A stretch of 64,000 nucleotides of DNA, from contig JADINA010000007.1 in NCBI GenBank assembly GCA_017694295.1, positions 5,754-69,753 of the forward strand, read 5' to 3'. Positions 2 to 60,300 of the stretch are shown piece by piece. The notes below the pieces were generated by a model, which saw only the letters and a list, made by a program, of their open reading frames with translations, was not told where the DNA came from and did no database searches. How positions within the stretch are numbered: the first letter of the stretch is position 1; each line of letters starts with the position of its first letter. Made by a program: the position numbers and the translations under genes. The stretch comes from Candidatus Alloenteromonas pullistercoris (GTDB lineage Bacteria; Bacillota_I; Bacilli_A; RFN20; CAG-826).

Positions 2-1606
2 TCATGCCGCCCCTCCTTCAAATGACAGGAAAGCCCTCTCGGATTTGGCCTCGAATAGGATGACGGCGGGCACGAATAGGCATAGGCTAAGCCCAAGCAA
101 GAGGATATATGGGGAAATCCCGGAGAAGCCATCGAGGAGGGTGAGCAAAGCCGGGATGCCGGCGAAAAGGAACGGGAGGAGGAAGAAAAGCGATTTGAGG
201 TAGGCCATCTTGCTTTGCCTAAGCCCGGAAAGCCCGGTGAGGGCGGAAAATAGGTAAATCGAGGAAAGGAAGAAGGCGCCGGAAAGCAAAAGGAAGGGGA
301 AGGCGGGCCAAGAGACGTCGCCGAGGATGGAAAGGGAAAGAAGCGAGGCGGCATAGGCTAAAAAGCCCCAGAAAAGGGGAAGGGCGATTTTAGCCCGAAG
401 CTGGGCTTTGGGGGAGATGGGGAAGGTCTTAAGCAAGCTTAGGCGCCTCCCCTCCTTCTCTAGGCTTAGCCCCCCGGCCCCGTTTATGACGAAAAGGAAG
501 AGGAAGATGGTCGCCACCTGGATGAAGAAGCTCCAGCCCGGGAAGAGGTTGGAGATGAAGTTCAGGTTCCCGGTATGGAAGATGACCCCGATGGCGTGGA
601 CGACCGAGACGCTTAGGAAGGGGCTAGCCAAGACGAGGGAAAAGAAGGAAAGGACGCCGTCGCTATTGGAGGAGAGGACGAGGAACTCCTTCGAAAGAAG
701 AGCGTGCATCGGGGAGCGGAGGCCTTTGAAATAGCTTCTTTTCCTTTTTCCCTTGGGCTTCTCCCCCATTATGTAGAAGCGGAAAAAGAAGAAATACAGC
801 AGCGGCGAGAAGAAGGCGAAGCAGGCGATCGGGACGATGGCGCTTAAGCTGAAGAGGTAGAAGGGGTTGGCGATGTGGGCTAGTTTAAGAAACGGGGCGA
901 ACGGATAAAGGGCGTTCCCAATCGCGTTAAGCCTTCCGATGAACTCGGTGGTCAGCGAATAGGAAAGCGAGTTGCCCAAAACCAGATCGATGAAGAGGTT
1001 AAGCAAAAGGGAATACAAATACCCCAAGCCGATCATGAGCAAAAAGGAAAACACCAGCAAAACCCACATATTTTTCTGGATCGCCTTGGAAAGAAACCGA
1101 TATAGCGGCGCGAAAAGGAAGGAAAGGCCGAGGATCAGGAGGGGGAAGATGAAACAGAAAACCCCGCAATAAAGGTAATAAGGGAAATAGGCTTCCGCCA
1201 AGGCCCCATAGCAAATGGCGATGGGGAAGATTAGGAGAAGGACATAGGCGAAAGCGAGGCAATAGAAGAAGGCGGCTTTGGCGAGGAAGACATCGACTGG
1301 CCTAACCGGGACGGGCCCCAATATCCGCCTTTCCCGGGAGTCGAAGAAGGAGGAGGCGACCCGGGGCAAGATGGCAATCGCCCCGGCAAGGGAAAGCAGG
1401 CATAAGAGGATGGCGGTAAGGGAAAGGCTGGCCCCTTGATATGGGGAAAGGAGATTGAAGGCCTCGCGGTAAGCGAAGACCTCGATGCCGACGCATAGGG
1501 CGGCGGAAATCAAAACCAAGACGAGATAAAGCCATTTCGCGGTCCTGCTCCCTTTTGAGAAAATGGGCAAGGAGGAGAATTCGCGGTAAAACAAGACGGT
1601 GATCAT
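2..1606 (-). CDS. ABC-2-type exporter permease (multi-TM); C-terminus truncated by window edge
   Basis: 534-aa ORF of hydrophobic helices; 4-nt overlap (1603..1606) with the ABC ATPase gene upstream indicates translational coupling. Confidence 0.55.
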   Translation of the reverse strand: MITVLFYREFSSLPIFSKGSRTAKWLYLVLVLISAALCVGIEVFAYREAFNLLSPYQGASLSLTAILLCLLSLAGAIAILPRVASSFFDSRERRILGPVPVRPVDVFLAKAAFFYCLAFAYVLLLIFPIAICYGALAEAYFPYYLYCGVFCFIFPLLILGLSFLFAPLYRFLSKAIQKNMWVLLVFSFLLMIGLGYLYSLLLNLFIDLVLGNSLSYSLTTEFIGRLNAIGNALYPFAPFLKLAHIANPFYLFSLSAIVPIACFAFFSPLLYFFFFRFYIMGEKPKGKRKRSYFKGLRSPMHALLSKEFLVLSSNSDGVLSFFSLVLASPFLSVSVVHAIGVIFHTGNLNFISNLFPGWSFFIQVATIFLFLFVINGAGGLSLEKEGRRLSLLKTFPISPKAQLRAKIALPLFWGFLAYAASLLSLSILGDVSWPAFPFLLLSGAFFLSSIYLFSALTGLSGLRQSKMAYLKSLFFLLPFLFAGIPALLTLLDGFSGISPYILLLGLSLCLFVPAVILFEAKSERAFLSFEGGAA

Positions 1607-23020: not shown

Positions 23021-23557
23021 TCATCTAACCCTAAGCGAAAGTATCGAATCGACGAACTCCGACTTGCCCGCGGTGTAGTTTTTCCTTTCGTTTGGAAAGC
23101 GCTTGGCGAGGCTTTCCTTGAGCTCTTCGTATTCCTTGGCCTTCTCGAGGTGGGAGGAGAGAAAGTCGCGGAAGAAAAGGTAATCCTCGAAGCGGCCATC
23201 ACCTTTTTGGCAGAAATGGACAAAGGCGATGGATTCCCCCTTTTCGTTTTCCATTGCGTAAAGGATCTGATTGGGGACGTCCTCGCCGCGTAAAATAAGT
23301 CCTAGTAGCTCAAGTTCGTCCCTTTTCGCCTTGGCTTGCGAAATATCGGTTAGGCAAACCGCGATATCGGCGATCGGCTTGGCTTTGATGCTTTGGATCG
23401 CCGTGCTCCCAACATGGGCGAACTCGGCGCCAGGAAAAACCGGTTTGAGTCTTTCGATGACCTTGTTGGCTAGTTCCTTTGCCTGCAGATGGCATTCACC
23501 TAGCGCCACCTTTCCCTTTGCAAGTCCAAGTTCCATAACCCAGTTCCAAAAAATCAT
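23021..23557 (-). CDS. GrpB-family (nucleotidyltransferase-fold) protein
   Basis: ~178 aa with HVGSTAI nucleotidyltransferase-like motif characteristic of GrpB/DUF. Confidence 0.6.
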   Translation of the reverse strand: MIFWNWVMELGLAKGKVALGECHLQAKELANKVIERLKPVFPGAEFAHVGSTAIQSIKAKPIADIAVCLTDISQAKAKRDELELLGLILRGEDVPNQILYAMENEKGESIAFVHFCQKGDGRFEDYLFFRDFLSSHLEKAKEYEELKESLAKRFPNERKNYTAGKSEFVDSILSLRVR

Positions 23558-23639
23558 ATCCCCGAGGAAAGAGACAAAGTAAATAGGAAGGCATTTCGAA
23601 TTGTTGAAAAACGCCGATCAGATCTTGATATAATCCGGT

Positions 23640-24944
23640 TTGTTGATTATGGAAAGCAAACCAAAGGCGAAAAACAGGCGGGCCAAGCAGCTGCCACGCG
23701 CGATTGAGCTATTTGCCGGAGTAGGCGGCTTTCGGGTCGGCTTAAACCGCATTCGCTCCCTTGAGAACACGCTAAGAGAGAGAGAGAGAGAGAGATTTAA
23801 TTTCGTCTTCGCCAACCAATTTGAGCCGTCGACCAAAAGGCAAGACGCCTTCATCTGCTACCAAACCCATTTCCCCGACGGCGAGAACTCAAACCTCGAC
23901 ATCGCCAAAGTCGACAAAGCGTCAATCCCCGATTTCGACTTGCTGACGGCCGGCTTCCCCTGCCAAGACTATTCGGTCGCCAGAAGCCTGGCCAACGAGA
24001 AAGGAATCGAGGGGAAGAAAGGCGTCCTTTGGTGGGAGATAAACGATATCCTGCTGACCAAGAAGCCGAAGTTCGCCCTTTTGGAAAACGTCGACCGCCT
24101 CATTAAGGCCCCCTCTAAGCAAAGGGGCCGCGATTTCGGAATTATCCTCCATTGCCTAAACCAAGCCGGATACGGGGTTTTGTATAAGGTGATCAACGCC
24201 GCCGATTACGGTTTCCCTCAAAGGAGGCGTCGCGTTTACATATTCGCCTTCCGCCTCGACACCGCCTATGGGAAAAAGATGTCCTCGATTCCGGCTAAGC
24301 AAGCCATCGAGGAAAAGGGGATATTCGGCAAGAAGTTCCCAATAAAGCCCGAAGGGAAACTCAAGGAAGCTGACTTGACTGCCTATGGTGGTCTATTGGC
24401 TTTGCAAGAGGGGTTCGCGTTTCGCTTCGAGGATGCGGGGATGATGGCAAATGGCCATATATATACGGAAAAGACGACGCCGATTCAGGAAAAGCCGATT
24501 GCCCTTGGGGAGATTCTCGAAGACCTCGTTGATGACCAAAGTCTTTTCCTAAACGAAAGGCAAATCAGAAAATTCGCTTACCTTAAAGGGGCAAAGAAAA
24601 TAAGGCGAAAGGCGAAAAACGGTCATGAATACGTCTATTCGGAAGGGCCGATCGCCAACCCGGACTACCTCGACCGCCCATCGCGGACGATGCTGACAAG
24701 CGAAGGGACCATAAACCGCTCAACCCACGTCGTCCTCGATAAGCAGACGGGAAGGCCCCGCTTGCTTAGCCCGCGGGAATGCGAACGGCTCAACACCTTC
24801 CCCGACGACTGGACCGCGACCATGCCGAAAAATCGCCGCTACTTCATGATGGGCAACGCTTTGGTATGCGGGCTTATAGAGAGAATCGGCGATGAGATAG
24901 AGCTCATTTTCAAGGAGGAGGGGAAAGATGGAACGGGGGATTGA
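23640..24944 (+). CDS. DNA (cytosine-5)-methyltransferase (type II R-M M subunit)
   Basis: Motif I FAGVGGF, motif IV GFPCQDYS, motif VI ENV, motif X-like MGNALV; contains an in-frame (AG)10 tract. Confidence 0.85.
   Translation: MLIMESKPKAKNRRAKQLPRAIELFAGVGGFRVGLNRIRSLENTLRERERERFNFVFANQFEPSTKRQDAFICYQTHFPDGENSNLDIAKVDKASIPDFDLLTAGFPCQDYSVARSLANEKGIEGKKGVLWWEINDILLTKKPKFALLENVDRLIKAPSKQRGRDFGIILHCLNQAGYGVLYKVINAADYGFPQRRRRVYIFAFRLDTAYGKKMSSIPAKQAIEEKGIFGKKFPIKPEGKLKEADLTAYGGLLALQEGFAFRFEDAGMMANGHIYTEKTTPIQEKPIALGEILEDLVDDQSLFLNERQIRKFAYLKGAKKIRRKAKNGHEYVYSEGPIANPDYLDRPSRTMLTSEGTINRSTHVVLDKQTGRPRLLSPRECERLNTFPDDWTATMPKNRRYFMMGNALVCGLIERIGDEIELIFKEEGKDGTGD
23775..23795. repeat. (AG)10A dinucleotide simple-sequence repeat inside the C5-methyltransferase ORF
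   Basis: agagagagagagagagagaga read in frame as RERERER between MTase motifs I and IV. Confidence 0.9.
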
Positions 24945-25602
24945 GGAGATACTCGCTTACCTCAACGGTTTTGCCGGGAAAAGCATCGAAGAGCTCTTTT
25001 CCTACGTCAATCTGGCCACAAAGGCAAAAAACAGGAACCGAATGCTGGCCGAAAAGCTTTTGGAAGCCTATTTGGGACATGGATTTTCGGTTTCAAATGC
25101 CCCATGGCAGTTAAAAACGATAAGGCTAGACAAAAACAACCGGCCCAAGGAATCTTGCGCCTTCCCGACCTTCCGCTGCGCCGATATTGCGAATAACGAC
25201 TTCGCCCATTCGGAAATCAGGAAAACCCTCGATGGGGATTTCCTTTTCTTCGCCACCAAAGATAGCGGGCGCGAGGTATTCGTCGGCGCTTTCATCTACC
25301 GCCTCCCGAAAGCCTACTTGGACGGGGAGGTAAAGGAGGTTTACGAGAAAACCCGGAAGGTCATTCGAAGCGGGGACGTAGTCAAATGCCGAAAGGACAA
25401 CCGCCTCATCCTCAACTTCCCGCGCGAAAGCGAGCAGCGGATCGCCCATGTCCGCCCCCATGGCCGCAACCAATTCGACGTCGACCATTTGCCGGTAAGG
25501 GACATCAAAACCGGCATAACCGACATACCAAAGCATTGCTTTTGGCTTAACAAAGGCTTCATCGAGGAAATCGCAAAAGCCAATCTAAATTTGGAGGCAT
25601 GA
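24928..25602 (+). CDS. MutH/Sau3AI-family endonuclease-like protein (probable cognate REase of the C5 MTase)
   Basis: 224 aa (MutH is 229 aa); C-terminal RIAHVRPHGRNQFD...CFWLNKGFIEEIA resembles MutH LQIRPKAANAKA...GFYLKKNFTSALL; central QLKT where MutH has ELKT; 17-nt overlap with the MTase gene. Confidence 0.55.
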   Translation: MERGIEEILAYLNGFAGKSIEELFSYVNLATKAKNRNRMLAEKLLEAYLGHGFSVSNAPWQLKTIRLDKNNRPKESCAFPTFRCADIANNDFAHSEIRKTLDGDFLFFATKDSGREVFVGAFIYRLPKAYLDGEVKEVYEKTRKVIRSGDVVKCRKDNRLILNFPRESEQRIAHVRPHGRNQFDVDHLPVRDIKTGITDIPKHCFWLNKGFIEEIAKANLNLEA

Positions 25603-25608
25603 TATACA

Positions 25609-26838
25609 ATGATTGACGTCAATTCCGGGCTATTCAAAAAAGGGATAAAGAAAAGGCTACCCCTAAATGGGAGAACCGAGGAAGTAGATACGTATCTCAT
25701 TCCCGTTGAGAAGCTATTCTTCAATGACTTGAATTCCCGCATCGCCACCTATTCGGAAAGCTACAGAAAAGAATACGGGGAGTCGCTTTCCTCACTTTTG
25801 GGAAGGGACAAGGAGAGATACAACGACGTCGTATCCGGCTACATAAAGGAATCCGCGGCCGACGGGGGCGCCTCCTTCCGCGCCACCAAGGAAGACATAA
25901 GGGAAAAAGGGCAAAGGGAGCCCGGCGTCATCCTTACAGACGGGAGGATAGTCGACGGCAACCGCCGCTTCACCTGCATTAGGGAGCTGTTCAAGGAAAC
26001 CGGGAAGGCGGACTTCGGATATTTCGAAGCCGCCGTGCTGGACGCAAGCAAGGTCGACGCCAAGACAATCAAGCGGCTTGAGTTAGCCCTCACCTTCATC
26101 GATCCCCCGAAGGAATACAACAAGGTCGAGCAATGCGCCGGCTTTTACCTTGACGTCATGAAAAACCACATCATCTCCGAAGCCGAATACCAGTATGCCA
26201 CCAACCGCACCGACCCCGAGATGAAAAATCTAAAGAACCTCGTCGAGACGATGCTTGAATACCTAACCTGGCTTAATCAGCCGGAGGCCTTTTACATTAT
26301 TAAGCAAAACCGCCTCGACGGTCCTTTCGAGGAGCTTTACAAATTTAGGTCAAGTATCGGGTCAAACGCCTGGAACGAGAAGAAATTCGCCTTCTTCTCA
26401 TATCTCAAATTCCACAGTAAAGGGGACACGACCAGGGAAATGCGCGAGCTAATAAAATCCGCCAAGGATAGCGGGACGTTATTCAATCGGGTTGAAAAAA
26501 CCGCCAAGGAGAAAAGGGCGGATATCATAAACGCCATTTCGGGAATCGGGGAAAAAGACGAAACCAGGAAAAGGGAAACGCAAAGGATAAGCGACGCCAT
26601 CGTCGCAGACATTAAGAAGTCTTTCGACGCCGGATCGATGGTCGAGAAGCAGGAGAAAACCGCGCTTGAACCGCTTCAGGCAATCGAAAACAGCCGCAAA
26701 AGCCTGCATAAAATCAATACAGCCGCCGTTTCCAGCTTAGATGAGCAAACCAAGGAAAAAGCCCGCAAAGAGCTTTTGGAATTGGAGAAAGTACTGCAAA
26801 AGGTCAAAGATGCCTTCGCTTCGGGAACTGACGCTTAA
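25609..26838 (+). CDS. ParB/Srx-domain (ParB-like nuclease/NTPase N-terminal domain) protein
   Basis: GQREPGVILTDGRIVDGNRRFTCIRE resembles the ParB GERRxRA box; the remaining ~270 aa are alpha-helical with no recognised domain. Confidence 0.55.
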   Translation: MIDVNSGLFKKGIKKRLPLNGRTEEVDTYLIPVEKLFFNDLNSRIATYSESYRKEYGESLSSLLGRDKERYNDVVSGYIKESAADGGASFRATKEDIREKGQREPGVILTDGRIVDGNRRFTCIRELFKETGKADFGYFEAAVLDASKVDAKTIKRLELALTFIDPPKEYNKVEQCAGFYLDVMKNHIISEAEYQYATNRTDPEMKNLKNLVETMLEYLTWLNQPEAFYIIKQNRLDGPFEELYKFRSSIGSNAWNEKKFAFFSYLKFHSKGDTTREMRELIKSAKDSGTLFNRVEKTAKEKRADIINAISGIGEKDETRKRETQRISDAIVADIKKSFDAGSMVEKQEKTALEPLQAIENSRKSLHKINTAAVSSLDEQTKEKARKELLELEKVLQKVKDAFASGTDA

Positions 26839-29413
26839 AGCGACATACGACCCGGCAAGAGACGGGCAAAACACGGTGGATGGTTTTCTTCTGCCCTGCC
26901 TAAAGCGCTCCGTTTCCTATGACCGCCTAAGCGCCTATTTCTCCTCAGCCGCCTTAAAGGTCGCCTCCAAAGGGATAAAGGAGCTAATTGGCAACGGCGG
27001 AAAGATCCGCTTCATCTTCTCCTCGCAGATCGAGGAAAGCGAGATGCGGCAAATCCGCGAGGCCTACCATCGCAAAATGGACGGGATGGCCGAAGAACTA
27101 AAAAACGATCCTTCGCTAAACGACGACTTTGAGGTCGCCAACCTCTCCTATCTTATCGAGTCTGGGCTCGCGGAAGTCAAAATAGCCTTCATGCTCAACA
27201 CCGCCTCCTCCATCTGCCATACGAAACTTGGGGTTTTCAAAGACAATTGTGGCGGCATCATCGCCTTCACCGGATCCGGAAACGAAACCGAGGCCGGTTT
27301 GCTGCGCAATGCCGAGATCTTCTCCGTCTTCAACAACTTCGAAGGCGTTGACCCACACCTTGAAGACGCCGTGAGGATGTTCGAAAGCATATGGGACAAC
27401 ACCTATAGCCCCGCCACCATGGTGGCAGTCTACCCGGATGGCAGATTATTCGACACGTTGATGTCTTATTCCAGGCACCGGGTTGTCGAATCGGAGGAAG
27501 ATTTATGCGAGCAAGACGACTCAGTGCTCATAGACGTCGACAAAGGGAGGGTGCTATTGACCGATAGAACGTCAAGGCGGCAATTGCGGATAAGCGCCGT
27601 TCTTTCCTCCTACTTATCCCATTTCGAGGCCGTTGGGCCCGATGCGTATGACTGCGGGAAGGCGAACGCGCATCTTATCCGCGACGTCATAATCGGAAAT
27701 CTAAAAGACTCAGGCGTCAACTTCCATCTAAGCCTGCGGGCAAGGCTGTTCCTCGAACAATACGATTACAAGTTAAGGCAGCGTGTCAAGTTGGCCTCAG
27801 CCATCAAATCCAATCAAGGGCAAGACCTTTGGCTAAGGCAATACATTGACTTTAAAGAAATCGTCAACAGCAGAACTTCGCCAAAATATCCACTTAAAGA
27901 AAGGCAAATGCATAACGCCTTCTTCCATTCCGTCATGAAAAGCTCGGCGGACTTCTCGGTTCCGGGAACCGGCAAAACCTTCATTTCCTATGGCCTATAC
28001 GCATATTTGCAACATTGCCGTCTAGCCAATCGAATCGTCGTATTCGGCCCTCTCAATTGCTTTTTGGCTTGGAAGGAGGAAGCAAACAAAATATACGAGG
28101 GTAAGCAAACCCTCTCCTTCTTCGACATCAGCGAACACCAAGCCAACTGGCAAAACGAGATTAAGCAAAGGGTATGCGACTGCTATCTGTTCAATTACGA
28201 ATGGCTAAATAGTCCTGCTAAATGTGAGCTTCTCTCCAAATATGTCCTAACCAAGAGAACCCTTTTGGTATTTGACGAAATCCATAAGCTAAAGGCCATC
28301 GACGGTTTTCGATCGAATATGTTTCTAAGTTTCCTCAAGGAAGTAGATGATCCGCCGATATATCGATTGGCTCTTACCGGTACCCCATTGCCGAATTCCT
28401 ACTCCGATCTCTCCAATTGCCTAAACTACCTTTTCCCTGATGACATGGAAGGCGATTTGGCCGGCCTCTCGCCCCTTTCGCTTAAGCAGGCCGACAAAGA
28501 CGGGGAGGCTGCAACCAAGGTTCGGGAAGCCTTATATCCTTTATTTGTCAGGACGACGAAATCCGATCTTCGCGTCCCGCCTCCTGAGCCCGATGATTGC
28601 AACTCCCTTTCCTGCGTCCCAAGCGGAAAGGAGGCAAACCTATATAAGGCCATTTGGAATAGCGGACTTGACCCGCTCGCCAAATACATCCGTCTCATCC
28701 AGGCGAGTTCGAATCCGCCTTTGCTTAAGAAATCCTTATCCCTCGACGACTTCTCGGGGATAGTCGATGACCCGCTCGAAATCAACTTTTCCGAGCTTGA
28801 GGCCAAATCGGAAATAGCCGAAATAGCCTCCGCCATCCCGTTATCCGGCAAAATGCGAAAGACGATCGACTTCCTCGTTTCCGAAATTGGCATCGGGAAA
28901 AAGATAATCGTTTGGTGCCTGTTCATCGATACGATTGATCTGGCGGCAAGGCTATTGCGGGAAAGGGGAATAGAGGCAATCACCATCTGCGGCCGCGACA
29001 CTCAGGCGGATAGACAAGCAAAAATCAACCGATTCAAGCATGGCGGGCCGATGGTTTTGCTCACCAACCCAAACACACTGGCGGAGTCGGTATCCCTCCA
29101 TACCGTCTGCCACGAGGCGGTCTATCTCGAATACGGCTTCAACCTTACCTACCTCCTTCAATCCAAAGACCGCATAAACAGGGTCGGTTTGAAAGACGGG
29201 GAAAAGACCTTCTATTATTTCGCCATCTCCGGAAAGAGGGAATGCGGCGCCGCGTCGCTGGATGCCTTCATTCTCAAACGTCTAAAGGAGAAGGAAATCC
29301 GCATGCTAAGCGCCATCGAATCCGATGACCTGCCCGCCCCGGTCAACATGCCATCCGATATCGATGACATCAAGCGGATCATCGCCGATTACCAATCGGC
29401 TTTGGAAAAATAG
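26810..29413 (+). CDS. PLD-family nuclease / SNF2-family helicase fusion protein
   Basis: Start re-assigned to ATG 26810 (MPSLRELTLK). Single HKD motif HTKLGVFKDNCGGIIAFTGSGNETEAG. Walker A VPGTGKTFIS. Motif II VFDEIHKLK. SNF2 motif III LALTGTPLPNSYSDLSNCLNYLF. Helicase-C motifs (LLTNPNTLAESVSLH...QSKDRINRVG). Confidence 0.75.
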   Translation: MPSLRELTLKATYDPARDGQNTVDGFLLPCLKRSVSYDRLSAYFSSAALKVASKGIKELIGNGGKIRFIFSSQIEESEMRQIREAYHRKMDGMAEELKNDPSLNDDFEVANLSYLIESGLAEVKIAFMLNTASSICHTKLGVFKDNCGGIIAFTGSGNETEAGLLRNAEIFSVFNNFEGVDPHLEDAVRMFESIWDNTYSPATMVAVYPDGRLFDTLMSYSRHRVVESEEDLCEQDDSVLIDVDKGRVLLTDRTSRRQLRISAVLSSYLSHFEAVGPDAYDCGKANAHLIRDVIIGNLKDSGVNFHLSLRARLFLEQYDYKLRQRVKLASAIKSNQGQDLWLRQYIDFKEIVNSRTSPKYPLKERQMHNAFFHSVMKSSADFSVPGTGKTFISYGLYAYLQHCRLANRIVVFGPLNCFLAWKEEANKIYEGKQTLSFFDISEHQANWQNEIKQRVCDCYLFNYEWLNSPAKCELLSKYVLTKRTLLVFDEIHKLKAIDGFRSNMFLSFLKEVDDPPIYRLALTGTPLPNSYSDLSNCLNYLFPDDMEGDLAGLSPLSLKQADKDGEAATKVREALYPLFVRTTKSDLRVPPPEPDDCNSLSCVPSGKEANLYKAIWNSGLDPLAKYIRLIQASSNPPLLKKSLSLDDFSGIVDDPLEINFSELEAKSEIAEIASAIPLSGKMRKTIDFLVSEIGIGKKIIVWCLFIDTIDLAARLLRERGIEAITICGRDTQADRQAKINRFKHGGPMVLLTNPNTLAESVSLHTVCHEAVYLEYGFNLTYLLQSKDRINRVGLKDGEKTFYYFAISGKRECGAASLDAFILKRLKEKEIRMLSAIESDDLPAPVNMPSDIDDIKRIIADYQSALEK

Positions 29414-57365: not shown

Positions 57366-60300
57366 TCAGAGGGCGTAGGTTTGGAAGCTATTGGCCGCGA
57401 CTTGGACCTCGGTTTCGGTCCCATCGTGGTGGACGGTAACCGTTTTGGCCTCGCCCGGATTCCAGATGACAGCGACCTTGCTTCCGCCATTCTCATACAC
57501 CATCCCGGCGACCATATCGCCGGATTCGACGTAATCAGAGGCGCTGCGGGAACCCAAGGTCTTGTTGGCGTGCACCATGTAGTAGGAGAGGCTAAGCTCG
57601 CTTGGGTATTGCTCGGACAAGATGGTGGAGGCGTCGAAGGAGGAGATGGCGGAATCGGGATCGAAGATCGACTCGATGGCCCAGAGGTAGGAATGCCACA
57701 CCCGCGGCGCCCCGGTCCCGGTGGCCTCGCACATCTGCTCGTAAATCCCCTCGAGGATCGTTAGCTCCTCCGAGCCGAGGGCGTAGGAATTCAGGTATTC
57801 CCCGGTCGGGAGCCAGTGGATGCCGTAGATGAACTCGGGGTTGGGCCCGAACCAGGTCTGGTATTCGTTTTTGGTCCCCCAGACGATGCCGACGGCCCCG
57901 ACGTTGTCCTCAAACGCGTCGATCCAGTTGTCGCCGTCGTAGTTGAACCAGTATTGCTTGATGGCCTCAAGCTCGGTGGTGAAGCCGTAAATCGCGGCGT
58001 CGATGGCCTGTTGGTCCTCCATGACGAGGCCCATCAAATAGCCGCCGACCCAGGAATTGAGCGCTTCGCCCGAGGACTCCTGGTTGTTGCCGTCGGACGC
58101 ATCGCCCTTCCCGTCGGCCCAGGAATGGCCAGCGTAGGGGTCGAAGGTCCTAAATAACGGGAACCTCCCATCCTCCTCGTCGTAATTCATGTAGTCCTTC
58201 ACCATGGTCATTGCCATCTCGCCATAACCTTCCTTGAAGGTCGGGTCGTAATAGGAGAGGACGGCCGAGGCGAAGGTTAAGTAGCCGCCGGTGAAGTGAT
58301 GGTCGGAAAGCCGCGAGGCGGTGGAGAAGTCGTCGTTGCTCCAAATGAGGGAGCCGGCGACCTCGTCGTAATACATGTAGCGCTCATCGGTCGTCCCGGA
58401 ATAGGTCCACCAGTCGACCAAATCACCGCGGAGGATGCCCATGATGTCGCTCTTAGCCTCCTCATCCCCGATCTGGTCGGCGATGATTAGACCCTGCGCC
58501 AGCGGGTAGATGGCTTTGGCGTTCCAATAGGGCCCGGGGGCGTCGATGAAGTTTTGGTTGGCCTCGGTGAAGGCCTCGTCGCTCGGGGTGTTGTGCTCAA
58601 GAAGCGAATCGAGGTATTCCCCCATCGTCGCCTCGTCGAAGGAGGCGTCGGAGGGCTTGGTGAAGCTAGGCAGCAAGCCGGCGAAGCTCATGGTGGTTCT
58701 GATCTCGCTACCCTCGGTCATCTTCATGGTGCCGCGGATGGTCGAAAGGGTATGCTCCTGCCCTATCGCCGAGTCGGAGTTTTTCCATTGGTGCGGGAGC
58801 AATCCGATGATCGGGTTGGCCTCGCCCTCTTTCTCCATGACGTGGACTTTGTAGCCGAGGGTCGTCTTGACCTCATTGGTCGAATGGTCGACCTCATAGG
58901 AATAATAGGTGGAGTCGATGAAGGTCCCCTTTGCTTTGGCGTAGAAGGCGGTTTCGCTGACCGAGGCGAGGGTGCCGACGCTCATGTAGTTGCCTTCCAA
59001 GGCGCCGGTTATCGTCCCGATGTGGCCCGGATCGGAGAAGTCGGGGGCGAAGGTGAATGAGGACCCCTCGGGGGCGAGGACGATGAAGTTCTGCTCCTCG
59101 TAGATTGGCTGGCCAACGCCGGGGTTAGGCCAATTGGGCTGATATCCGATGTGCTTTTTCGGGCAATGGAGGACGAAGCCGGTGGAGACGGAGGAGCTGC
59201 GCCAATCGATCTTGTTGCCGGAAAGGTCATAGACCTCGAATGGCTGGGTGACCCCGCCGCGGGCGAGGGCGATGCTAATTTGGTTGGTGTCGAACTCATA
59301 GAAGCCAAAAGGCGAACCCTGGACCATGGTCGCCACCATGTTGGCCTTGCCCGTGTTTTGGTCTACCATGGCGAGCTTAACCGAGTTCTCCGAGTAAGAG
59401 ACGACCTCGGTTTGGGGGGCGCTAGGCAAGGTGGAGGGCTTGATGGTCAAATCGGCGAAGGTCGGGGTGAAGTTGGACATGGTCGGGCCCTCCACACCAG
59501 TGACGGTGTCGATGGCCTTCTTGAACGACTCCGCCCCGCCGCGATTTATCTCGGTCATGGTGATGCCGTTGGCGTTGGCTCCAAAAACCAGCGGGTTGGC
59601 CGCCGCCCTGGTCTCCCCGCCGTAATTGCCGTAGAAGAAGCCCGAATACCAGGTGTTGGTCGGCACCGGGCCGTCGTTGAAGGCGGAATTGGAAAGGTTG
59701 GTGGCCTCCGGGGAGCGGGCTATCGGCTTGACGGAGCTTTGCCCGGTCTGGGGGTCGTTGTAGGCGACCGTCGGATTGGCCCCGCCCTGGAGGTAGGAGG
59801 CTTCGCCGAGGACGTTGGTCTTTTCCGCGCCATAGGCCCTATTGCGGGCCTCTTCCGCGGGGATGGGCCCGGATTCGACCAAGACGGTCCGCCTCGCGAT
59901 GGCGGGCTCGCCGGAGGTCGCTATCTCGTAAACGAGCTCATACGACCCGGGGACGCCGTAATCGACATGGCCTTTGCAGACGATCCTATCGGTCAAATCG
60001 GCCTCGTTGGTGTCATGGGCCGTCACGCCTTCGAAGACGTCGAAATACTGCCCCGCCTTAATCGTGGCGTTGCCTACCCCATCGAAGGTCACATCCCCCA
60101 CGACCACCGGCTCATCGGGCTCCTCGCTTGAGGAGGAGGTGGAGTCGGAGGAAGAGGAGGAGGAATCAGTCGAATCTTCCGAGGAGGAGTCGCTTGAGGA
60201 ATCGCTCGATTCGGTGGAATCGCCGCTTTCGACTTCGCTTTCCGATGAGGAGGAAGAGGAGGTTTGGCTATCCGAATCGGTTTCCGAGGACTCGATCGGG

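Follow-up and report, generated by a model that had tools for sequence, protein, structure and literature searches.

The AG tract in a C5 methyltransferase gene

The stretch of Candidatus Alloenteromonas pullistercoris DNA analysed here (the window; 64,000 nucleotides (nt) of contig JADINA010000007.1) carries on its forward strand a gene for a C5 DNA cytosine methyltransferase (MTase) with a perfect AG dinucleotide tract in its reading frame. The MTase gene is the first of a tightly packed block of four genes, the others encoding a Sau3AI-C-like protein, a ParB-fold protein and an HKD-SNF2 protein. In this study, we describe the tract, its length in relatives recovered from metagenomes and the cassette behind it, and argue that the tract is very probably an ON/OFF switch of the MTase. 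The features needed for this argument (protein lengths in amino acids, aa) are as follows:

23649..24944, + strand: coding sequence of the C5 DNA cytosine MTase, 431 aa, M.Sau3AI-like family (from PF00145, TIGR00675 and motifs)
23775..23795, + strand: (AG)10A simple sequence repeat (SSR), the proposed switch; ten units are the in-frame (ON) length and encode RERERER
23798..23800, + strand: TAA stop of the OFF frame of 9 or 12 units, one codon past the tract; 49-51 aa product
23944..23946, + strand: TGA stop of the OFF frame of 8 or 11 units, at codon ~98-100, ahead of the PCQ motif

The MTase matched Pfam PF00145 (1.8e-66, 225 bits against a cut-off of 22), NCBIfam TIGR00675 dcm (3.7e-73, 247 bits against a cut-off of 100.65) and PADLOC MTase_II (5.4e-157). 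Its FAGVGG (aa 22), PCQ (104), ENV (146), QRR (191) and GN (402) supply motifs I (FxGxG), IV, VI, VIII and X, which together with the above-threshold profiles define a C5 DNA cytosine methyltransferase. The start was taken as ATG 23649, following gene callers and homologues; the open reading frame (ORF) lister gives TTG 23640. The protein equals or nearly equals MBO8425828.1 (P0121) of Candidatus Alloenteromonas (Enteromonas) pullistercoris, Bacillota incertae sedis, which, like the related protein P0122, is 431 aa long.

The 21 nt of the tract read AGAGAGAGAGAGAGAGAGAGA, and Tandem Repeats Finder reported them as a period-2 repeat of 10.5 copies with 100% matches. In the protein (...LENTL-RERERER-FNFVFANQFEP) they make up residues 43-49, between motif I and PCQ, which bears out the placement between motifs I and IV given by an earlier, sequence-only reading of this DNA. 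The length of the tract is far beyond chance: dinucleotide-preserving shuffles yield only 0.04 AG runs of 12 nt per window, and the second-longest dinucleotide run in the 64 kb has 4 units, so that the absence of any other long dinucleotide tract, also part of that reading, holds as well. Judged from its codons, the repeat is a feature of the DNA, because AGA is a rare arginine codon here (5% of Arg codons in the long ORFs of the window); the probability of writing RERERER with AGA and GAG alone is ~1.7e-6 from codon usage. Elsewhere in the window, at 60130-60164, lies an imperfect (GAG)n trinucleotide array (11.7 copies, 75% matches), presumably the GA-rich linker mentioned by the sequence-only reading; with its period of 3, a change of its length keeps the frame.

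Tract length within the species and in other lineages

Loci were retrieved by MTase protein identity from ENA and Logan metagenome assemblies. On same-species contigs the tract measured 17, 19, 21 or 23 nt (8, 9, 10 or 11 units) between identical flanks, and the comparison of related genomes proposed by the sequence-only reading thus found strains that are not uniformly at ten units. Contigs with differing tracts came from different samples and shared 100% identity for as much as 2800 bp on the upstream and 4149 bp on the downstream side (up to 6.9 kb), and no further indel was found among the compared contigs in the 4149 bp downstream of the tract. Length differences were seen on three haplotype backgrounds, namely 23, 19, 19 and 17 nt in L005, L006, L007 and L008; 21 nt in L010 and L011 against 23 nt in L021; and 21 nt in L012-14, L017 and L018 against 19 nt in L020 and L022.

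Frame modelling showed that ten units give the 431-aa protein, that 9 or 12 units lead to the TAA one codon past the tract, and that 8 or 11 units lead to a stop at codon ~98-100, ahead of PCQ; among the lengths found in the species of the window (8-11 units), only ten are in frame. Gene calls in the retrieved loci agreed with this. A 49-aa ORF was called in the 19-nt loci L006 and L020, the 431-aa P0122 always came from 21-nt loci, and the 334-aa P0123 and P0124 came from 17, 19 or 23-nt loci. The 334-aa remnant begins, for gene callers, at TTG 23940-23942 (codon 98), a start region overlapped by the TGA at 23944-23946. All truncated gene calls were accounted for by tract length.

The 90% protein cluster of the window accordingly holds, besides 431-aa members, many 334-aa members on long contigs; the contigs of its listed members number ~19 ON and ~35 OFF, an OFF share of about two-thirds. 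In the OFF loci the downstream genes were intact and matched those of ON strains at 100% identity. The repeat lies inside the ORF, and its unit number varies among close strains in a way that shifts the frame, as in SSR-mediated phase-variable methyltransferases, and the earlier proposal that gain or loss of AG units frameshifts the MTase upstream of PCQ is matched by the 8, 9 and 11-unit contigs, all truncated before that motif.

Two other differences were noted at these loci. The GrpB gene beside the cassette (23021-23557, minus strand; L005-L022) was called at 171, 178, 186 or 193 aa. In L019, which is MTase-ON, a CAG>TAG change at codon 348 of the third gene (window position 26650) shortens the ParB-fold protein to 347 aa; besides the tract (21 vs 23 nt), this nonsense mutation was the sole difference between L019 and L021 over 4149 bp downstream and 634 bp upstream.

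Among the 120 best homologues, RERER was found at the tract position in the three closest lineages only; the remaining pattern-matched homologues (55-61% identical) have a non-repetitive loop such as NGxAIExGxW. The sequence-only reading had considered that RERERER might be conserved in homologues through non-repetitive codons; in the RERER lineages, however, the same AGA and GAG codons spell the motif, once more as a pure AG tract. Three further lineages, at most 63% identical to the window MTase and saturated at synonymous sites, have a pure AG tract in the corresponding loop, and in two of the three both ON and OFF lengths occur. Around 45 tracts have been sequenced in all, and every one is a perfect repeat.

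The second species is UMGS237, listed as 'uncultured Mollicutes bacterium' (a GTDB representative, with gut-metagenome and sequencing-run assemblies). Its MTase shares 63.6% protein identity and 60% DNA identity with that of the window, and an identity of 0.34 at third positions, hence synonymous saturation; the codons of the tract are nonetheless identical. In this lineage the tract occupies the same codons with 14, 16, 18, 20 or 22 nt (7-11 units), of which 16 nt (422 aa) and 22 nt (424 aa, with one extra RE) are ON and 14, 18 and 20 nt are OFF. The 22-nt form is an in-frame allele of three additional units (P0141/L033), and the listed members of this sister cluster comprise ~12 ON and ~32 OFF contigs. 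In the third lineage the tract is ON at 16 nt. The JGI contig L037 represents a fourth lineage at a greater distance; its 18-nt tract is OFF, the TAA following at once, and the same four-gene cassette is present. A scan of GTDB species representatives returned one match only, UMGS237, and none for the window's own species. No viral contig among those scanned contained the tract with its conserved flank, thus giving no sign of a phage origin. The tract-less MTase relatives P0013 and P0004 (59-61% identity) belong to classical Type II pairs with full-length Sau3AI/MutH-family nucleases of 465-470 aa.

The four-gene cassette

The operon signal and the three genes that follow the MTase are:

23626..23634, + strand: TGaTATAAT, an extended -10-like element with its end 14 nt ahead of the MTase ATG (read from the sequence)
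24928..25602, + strand: gene 2, MutH/Sau3AI-C-terminal-domain-like protein, 224 aa; 17-nt overlap of its start with the MTase stop, and a strong Shine-Dalgarno site of its own
25609..26838, + strand: gene 3, ParB-fold protein, 409 aa (invariant DGNRR motif; AlphaFold2 and Foldseek)
26741..29413, + strand: gene 4, HKD(PLD) nuclease domain and SNF2/SF2 helicase, 890 aa (Pfam domains, PADLOC and motifs)

With a TTGAAA at 23604-23609, separated from it by a 19-nt spacer, the -10-like element forms a putative single promoter of the operon (23604-23634); a consensus scan found no promoter-like site between the -10-like element and 29189. The MTase ATG lies 14 nt past this element, so the leader would be very short, and no Shine-Dalgarno sequence precedes it (23604-23651). 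Genes 2 and 3 have their own strong GGAGG-type Shine-Dalgarno sites. The same genes stand behind the MTase in lineages 2, 3 and 4.

The methylation target is probably GAT(5mC), where 5mC is 5-methylcytosine, because relatives of the MTase are paired with Sau3AI-type nucleases. Avoidance of GATC was considered as a further signal of specificity and set aside as uninformative, its observed/expected ratio (O/E) of 0.72 being within the range of other 4-mer palindromes. The most under-represented of all 4-bp palindromes in the window is GTAC, with 30 sites observed against 70.7 expected (O/E 0.42); its scarcity might point to a further restriction system in some other part of the genome.

Gene 2 matched the NCBIfam Sau3AI family over profile positions 245-474 of 475 only (1.5e-34), the Sau3AI C-terminal domain in the Protein Data Bank (PDB; 2reu, 8.6e-12) and residues 252-460 of a full-length 465-aa restriction endonuclease (3e-28). 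In the alignment with the full-length relative, the position of the 'E' in the ELKT motif of its C-terminal half, a motif that we take, from the MutH sequence, to correspond to the one with the MutH catalytic Glu, is occupied by Q, W, K or L across the four cassette lineages. The sequence-only reading had named this MutH-like neighbour a restriction endonuclease. Since it corresponds to the Sau3AI C-terminal domain only and the position of the catalytic Glu is not conserved, gene 2 more probably encodes a non-catalytic DNA reader of the GATC methylation state. No full-length two-domain endonuclease with a catalytic N-terminal domain stands beside the MTase, as it would in a classical Sau3AI-type Type II pair.

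Gene 3 had no family match in Pfam, NCBIfam or PADLOC, and a profile search against PDB sequences gave chance-level matches only; the protein was placed by fold search instead. Its AlphaFold2 model (predicted local distance difference test score, pLDDT, 92.6) had ParB/Noc N-terminal domains as the best Foldseek matches (E 7e-4). The calls of this protein at 409 and 384 aa were examined as a second variable site and rejected, as they reflect the gene caller's choice of start on identical DNA.

Gene 4 starts at ATG 26741 (890 aa) or, according to the gene callers, at ATG 26810 (867 aa). It contains the Pfam domains PLDc_2, SNF2-rel_dom, ResIII and Helicase_C together with the motifs HTKLGVFKD...GSGN, GTGKT and DEIH, and its N-terminal region matched PADLOC PbeA (3.5e-54). 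On these grounds the HKD-SNF2 protein is the probable effector nuclease/translocase of the cassette.

No complete known defence system matching the cassette was found in the Pfam, NCBIfam and PADLOC libraries, and a literature search on combined PLD, SNF2, MutH and cytosine methyltransferase components returned nothing relevant. As regards DISARM, defined by a core of DrmA, DrmB (DUF1998) and DrmC together with DrmMII, DrmB was not found; the matches were weak ones in the helicase region to DrmD/DrmA (E 5e-6 to 7e-3) and a generic DrmMII match for the MTase. A restriction-modification (R-M) system of Type III is not indicated either, as the MTase is a C5 enzyme, gene 4 combines ResIII/SNF2 motifs with a nuclease domain of the HKD type, and two additional genes are present. 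PbeA-like matches, which would point to PbeABCD or CxC-ABC-DndE systems, were obtained for gene 4 only, with no ABC ATPase or DndE in the four genes or their flanks.

The G+C content of the block (23600-29400) is 0.48-0.53, compared with 0.55-0.59 in the housekeeping flanks, which hold rpsD, tyrS and GrpB upstream and a zinc-ribbon protein, CNNM transporters and GroEL downstream. In lineage 2 the cassette lies in a different genomic neighbourhood. The low G+C content and the different neighbourhood are consistent with a mobile cassette acquired by horizontal transfer.

The tract as a probable ON/OFF switch and its relation to known systems

It is very probable that the tract acts as a slipped-strand contingency switch of the MTase. 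Slipped-strand mispairing during replication would add or remove AG units, and the full 431-aa MTase would be made only from lengths that keep the frame, that is, 10 units in this species and, by arithmetic, also 7 and 13. The OFF protein would lack the catalytic PCQ and everything downstream of it, so that methylation would cease. As the MTase heads the operon, the switch would most likely move the whole methylation-based defence cassette between states. Slippage as the mechanism, its reversibility and rate, GATC specificity, an effect on defence or regulation and the way in which self-restriction is avoided are inferences. Switching within a clonal population would be reversible, because slippage is mutationally symmetric and because the ON, -1 and +1 states occur on one haplotype.

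The length differences might be thought to arise in sequencing or assembly, through PCR stutter or misassembly in low-coverage metagenomes. Some contigs do have only 2-7x coverage according to their names, and stutter does occur at dinucleotide repeats. However, independent samples and both sources yield the same set of discrete lengths, the differences span -2, -1, +1 and +3 units, alleles of three additional units in frame exist, no other indel is present in 4.1 kb, and OFF lengths are the majority, which is beyond what consensus stutter can yield; an artefact is accordingly very unlikely. Still less credible is a charged (Arg-Glu)n linker selected at the protein level with the DNA repeat being incidental. 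RERER is common to the three closest lineages and an in-frame allele with an additional RE exists, as such a linker would have it, but out-of-frame alleles are common, the rarity of AGA makes the codon choice non-random, and relatives of 55-61% identity work with a loop whose sequence is unrelated.

A further explanation, unlikely but the strongest of the three, is an unselected hypermutable site with ongoing gene decay, in which a chance expansion in a tolerant surface loop has pseudogenised the MTase and no switch is maintained. The ON share of about one-third equals the neutral expectation for a dinucleotide tract, the loop varies in length and sequence across the family, and the gene-3 nonsense mutation of the ON strain L019 hints at relaxed constraint on the cassette. 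Decay is, on the other hand, hard to reconcile with a pure, uninterrupted tract kept at the same loop in four lineages with saturated synonymous sites and perfect in all ~45 cases, with OFF strains whose remaining MTase ORF and ~4.1 kb downstream are identical to those of ON strains without further lesion, or with one haplotype in the ON, -1 and +1 states.

Several points weigh against a maintained switch of a GATC-based cassette. An ON share of about one-third is also what free drift of tract length predicts, and is as compatible with a hypermutable site under no selection as with a switch that is maintained. The counts themselves are biased, since loci were fetched by protein identity, and the ENA and Logan assemblies may duplicate samples. 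Specificity for GATC rests on the partners of homologues, and GATC is only mildly under-represented in the window. Finally, the strong Shine-Dalgarno site of gene 2 means that translational coupling is not required, and an account of the safe OFF state by polarity is unproven.

The last point concerns how the OFF state is tolerated at all. According to the sequence-only reading, cells that lost the MTase while keeping an intact cognate endonuclease would die. This expectation is not supported, as most of the listed assemblies are OFF, with the downstream genes intact and at 100% identity to their counterparts in ON strains. Strict translational coupling was considered as the reason and is weakened by the Shine-Dalgarno sites of genes 2 and 3. 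The lack of an internal promoter-like site leaves room for polarity after an early stop, and the genes behind the MTase may be less expressed when termination comes early. Another possibility is that the effector works only with the MTase, a dependence that is found in Type I, Type III and BREX-like systems. Rescue of OFF alleles by slippage, through programmed frameshifting or during transcription, is to our knowledge known for homopolymeric runs and not for AG dinucleotides.

The nearest precedent for the switch is the Type III mod gene of the MmyCI system of Mycoplasma mycoides subsp. capri, in which AG10 is ON and AG12 is OFF with a TAA immediately past the repeat (PMC3498834). As in the window, the tract lies in the 5' part of the methyltransferase ORF and ten units are in frame; the methyltransferase gene is first in its operon and overlaps the next gene, and the length-variable tract is conserved among related species. 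MmyCI Mod, by contrast, belongs to the N6-adenine Type III enzymes, and its OFF state is safe because the Res subunit needs Mod; the gene in the window encodes a C5 MTase from the M.Sau3AI-like Type II family, and the three genes behind it are not Res genes.

AG repeats are also carried by the Helicobacter pylori C5 MTase gene hpyAVIBM (PMC3411764). This is likewise a C5 enzyme with an intragenic AG repeat in which gain or loss of units truncates the protein and whose number differs among strains. It differs in having 4-5 units and in belonging to a proteobacterial pathogen, with no cognate restriction partner described in PMC3411764, whereas the tract reported here, of 7-11 units, stands at the head of a four-gene cassette and comes from gut Bacillota that are uncultured. 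Type II/III systems of M. agalactiae are reported to have tracts of poly(G) or poly(GA) (PMC9465063), and two surveys of Type I/III N6-adenine systems (PMC5909438 and PMC7383803) show that switching by SSRs is common among Type III mod genes and Type I hsd genes. As in phasevarions, an SSR in a methyltransferase ORF would give random ON/OFF expression; defined phasevarions, in contrast, have a demonstrated change of regulon, and the present switch is at most a candidate.

Compared with the Sau3AI Type II R-M system, the close MTase relatives (59-61%) are paired with full-length Sau3AI/MutH-family nucleases, and gene 2 is homologous to the Sau3AI C-terminal domain. The cassette nevertheless lacks the catalytic N-terminal Sau3AI domain, the nuclease role apparently falling to the HKD-SNF2 and ParB-fold proteins, and the classical relatives lack the AG tract. 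We tentatively propose that the tract is the master switch of an undescribed four-gene defence cassette based on GATC 5-methylcytosine, in which a non-catalytic Sau3AI-C-like reader and the ParB-fold and HKD-SNF2 proteins have taken the place of the Sau3AI nuclease. The repeat might have evolved in this architecture only, as loss of the MTase would be tolerated here, unlike in a classical Type II pair, and the outcome could be a population-level ON/OFF defence in gut commensals of birds and humans, possibly a 5mC-based phasevarion.

Switches of this type are already known; the novelty lies in the group of hosts, in ON and OFF states seen directly in metagenomes and in the unusual cassette that follows the tract. 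SSR-switched methyltransferases are established in pathogens (Haemophilus, Neisseria, Helicobacter and Mycoplasma), and reports of such switching are scarce both for uncultured commensals of the gut and for C5 enzymes in the Type II family. Public metagenomes show the same strain ON in some animals and OFF in others, and the locus is therefore well suited to testing phase variation in situ. They also raise the mechanistic question of how a methylation-based restriction cassette survives frequent loss of its MTase, the answer to which would reveal how the ParB-fold/HKD-SNF2 effector module is controlled.

PbeA, an HKD endoDNase fused to an SF2 helicase (PMC6459918; re-annotated in PMC10853773), has the same architecture as gene 4, which matches the PADLOC PbeA models, and some PbeA-type systems are linked to cytosine methylases (PMC10853773). 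Here, however, the operon is without CxC ABC ATPase or DndE and contains a ParB-fold protein and a MutH-like reader instead.

Homologues of genes 3 and 4 also recur as a pair without a methyltransferase or MutH-like gene, in L042 (4229-10778; Paenibacillus CP150228.1), L044 (1356-7904), L045 and L046 (Enterococcus faecalis plasmid pQZ076-2). The pair sits behind a protein of 865-919 aa, which has RNA polymerase alpha-CTD-like and sigma-70 region 4 domains in the Paenibacillus and Romboutsia-type copies and is annotated as a sigma factor-like helix-turn-helix protein in the plasmid copy. It was found on 66 plasmid records, 52 of them from Enterococcus. This distribution suggests that genes 3 and 4 form a modular effector pair with interchangeable front ends. 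Many longer gene-3 homologues (P0236-P0268; ~570 aa, one of 710 aa) contain an extra domain annotated PF18731, which indicates fused variants of the ParB-fold family.

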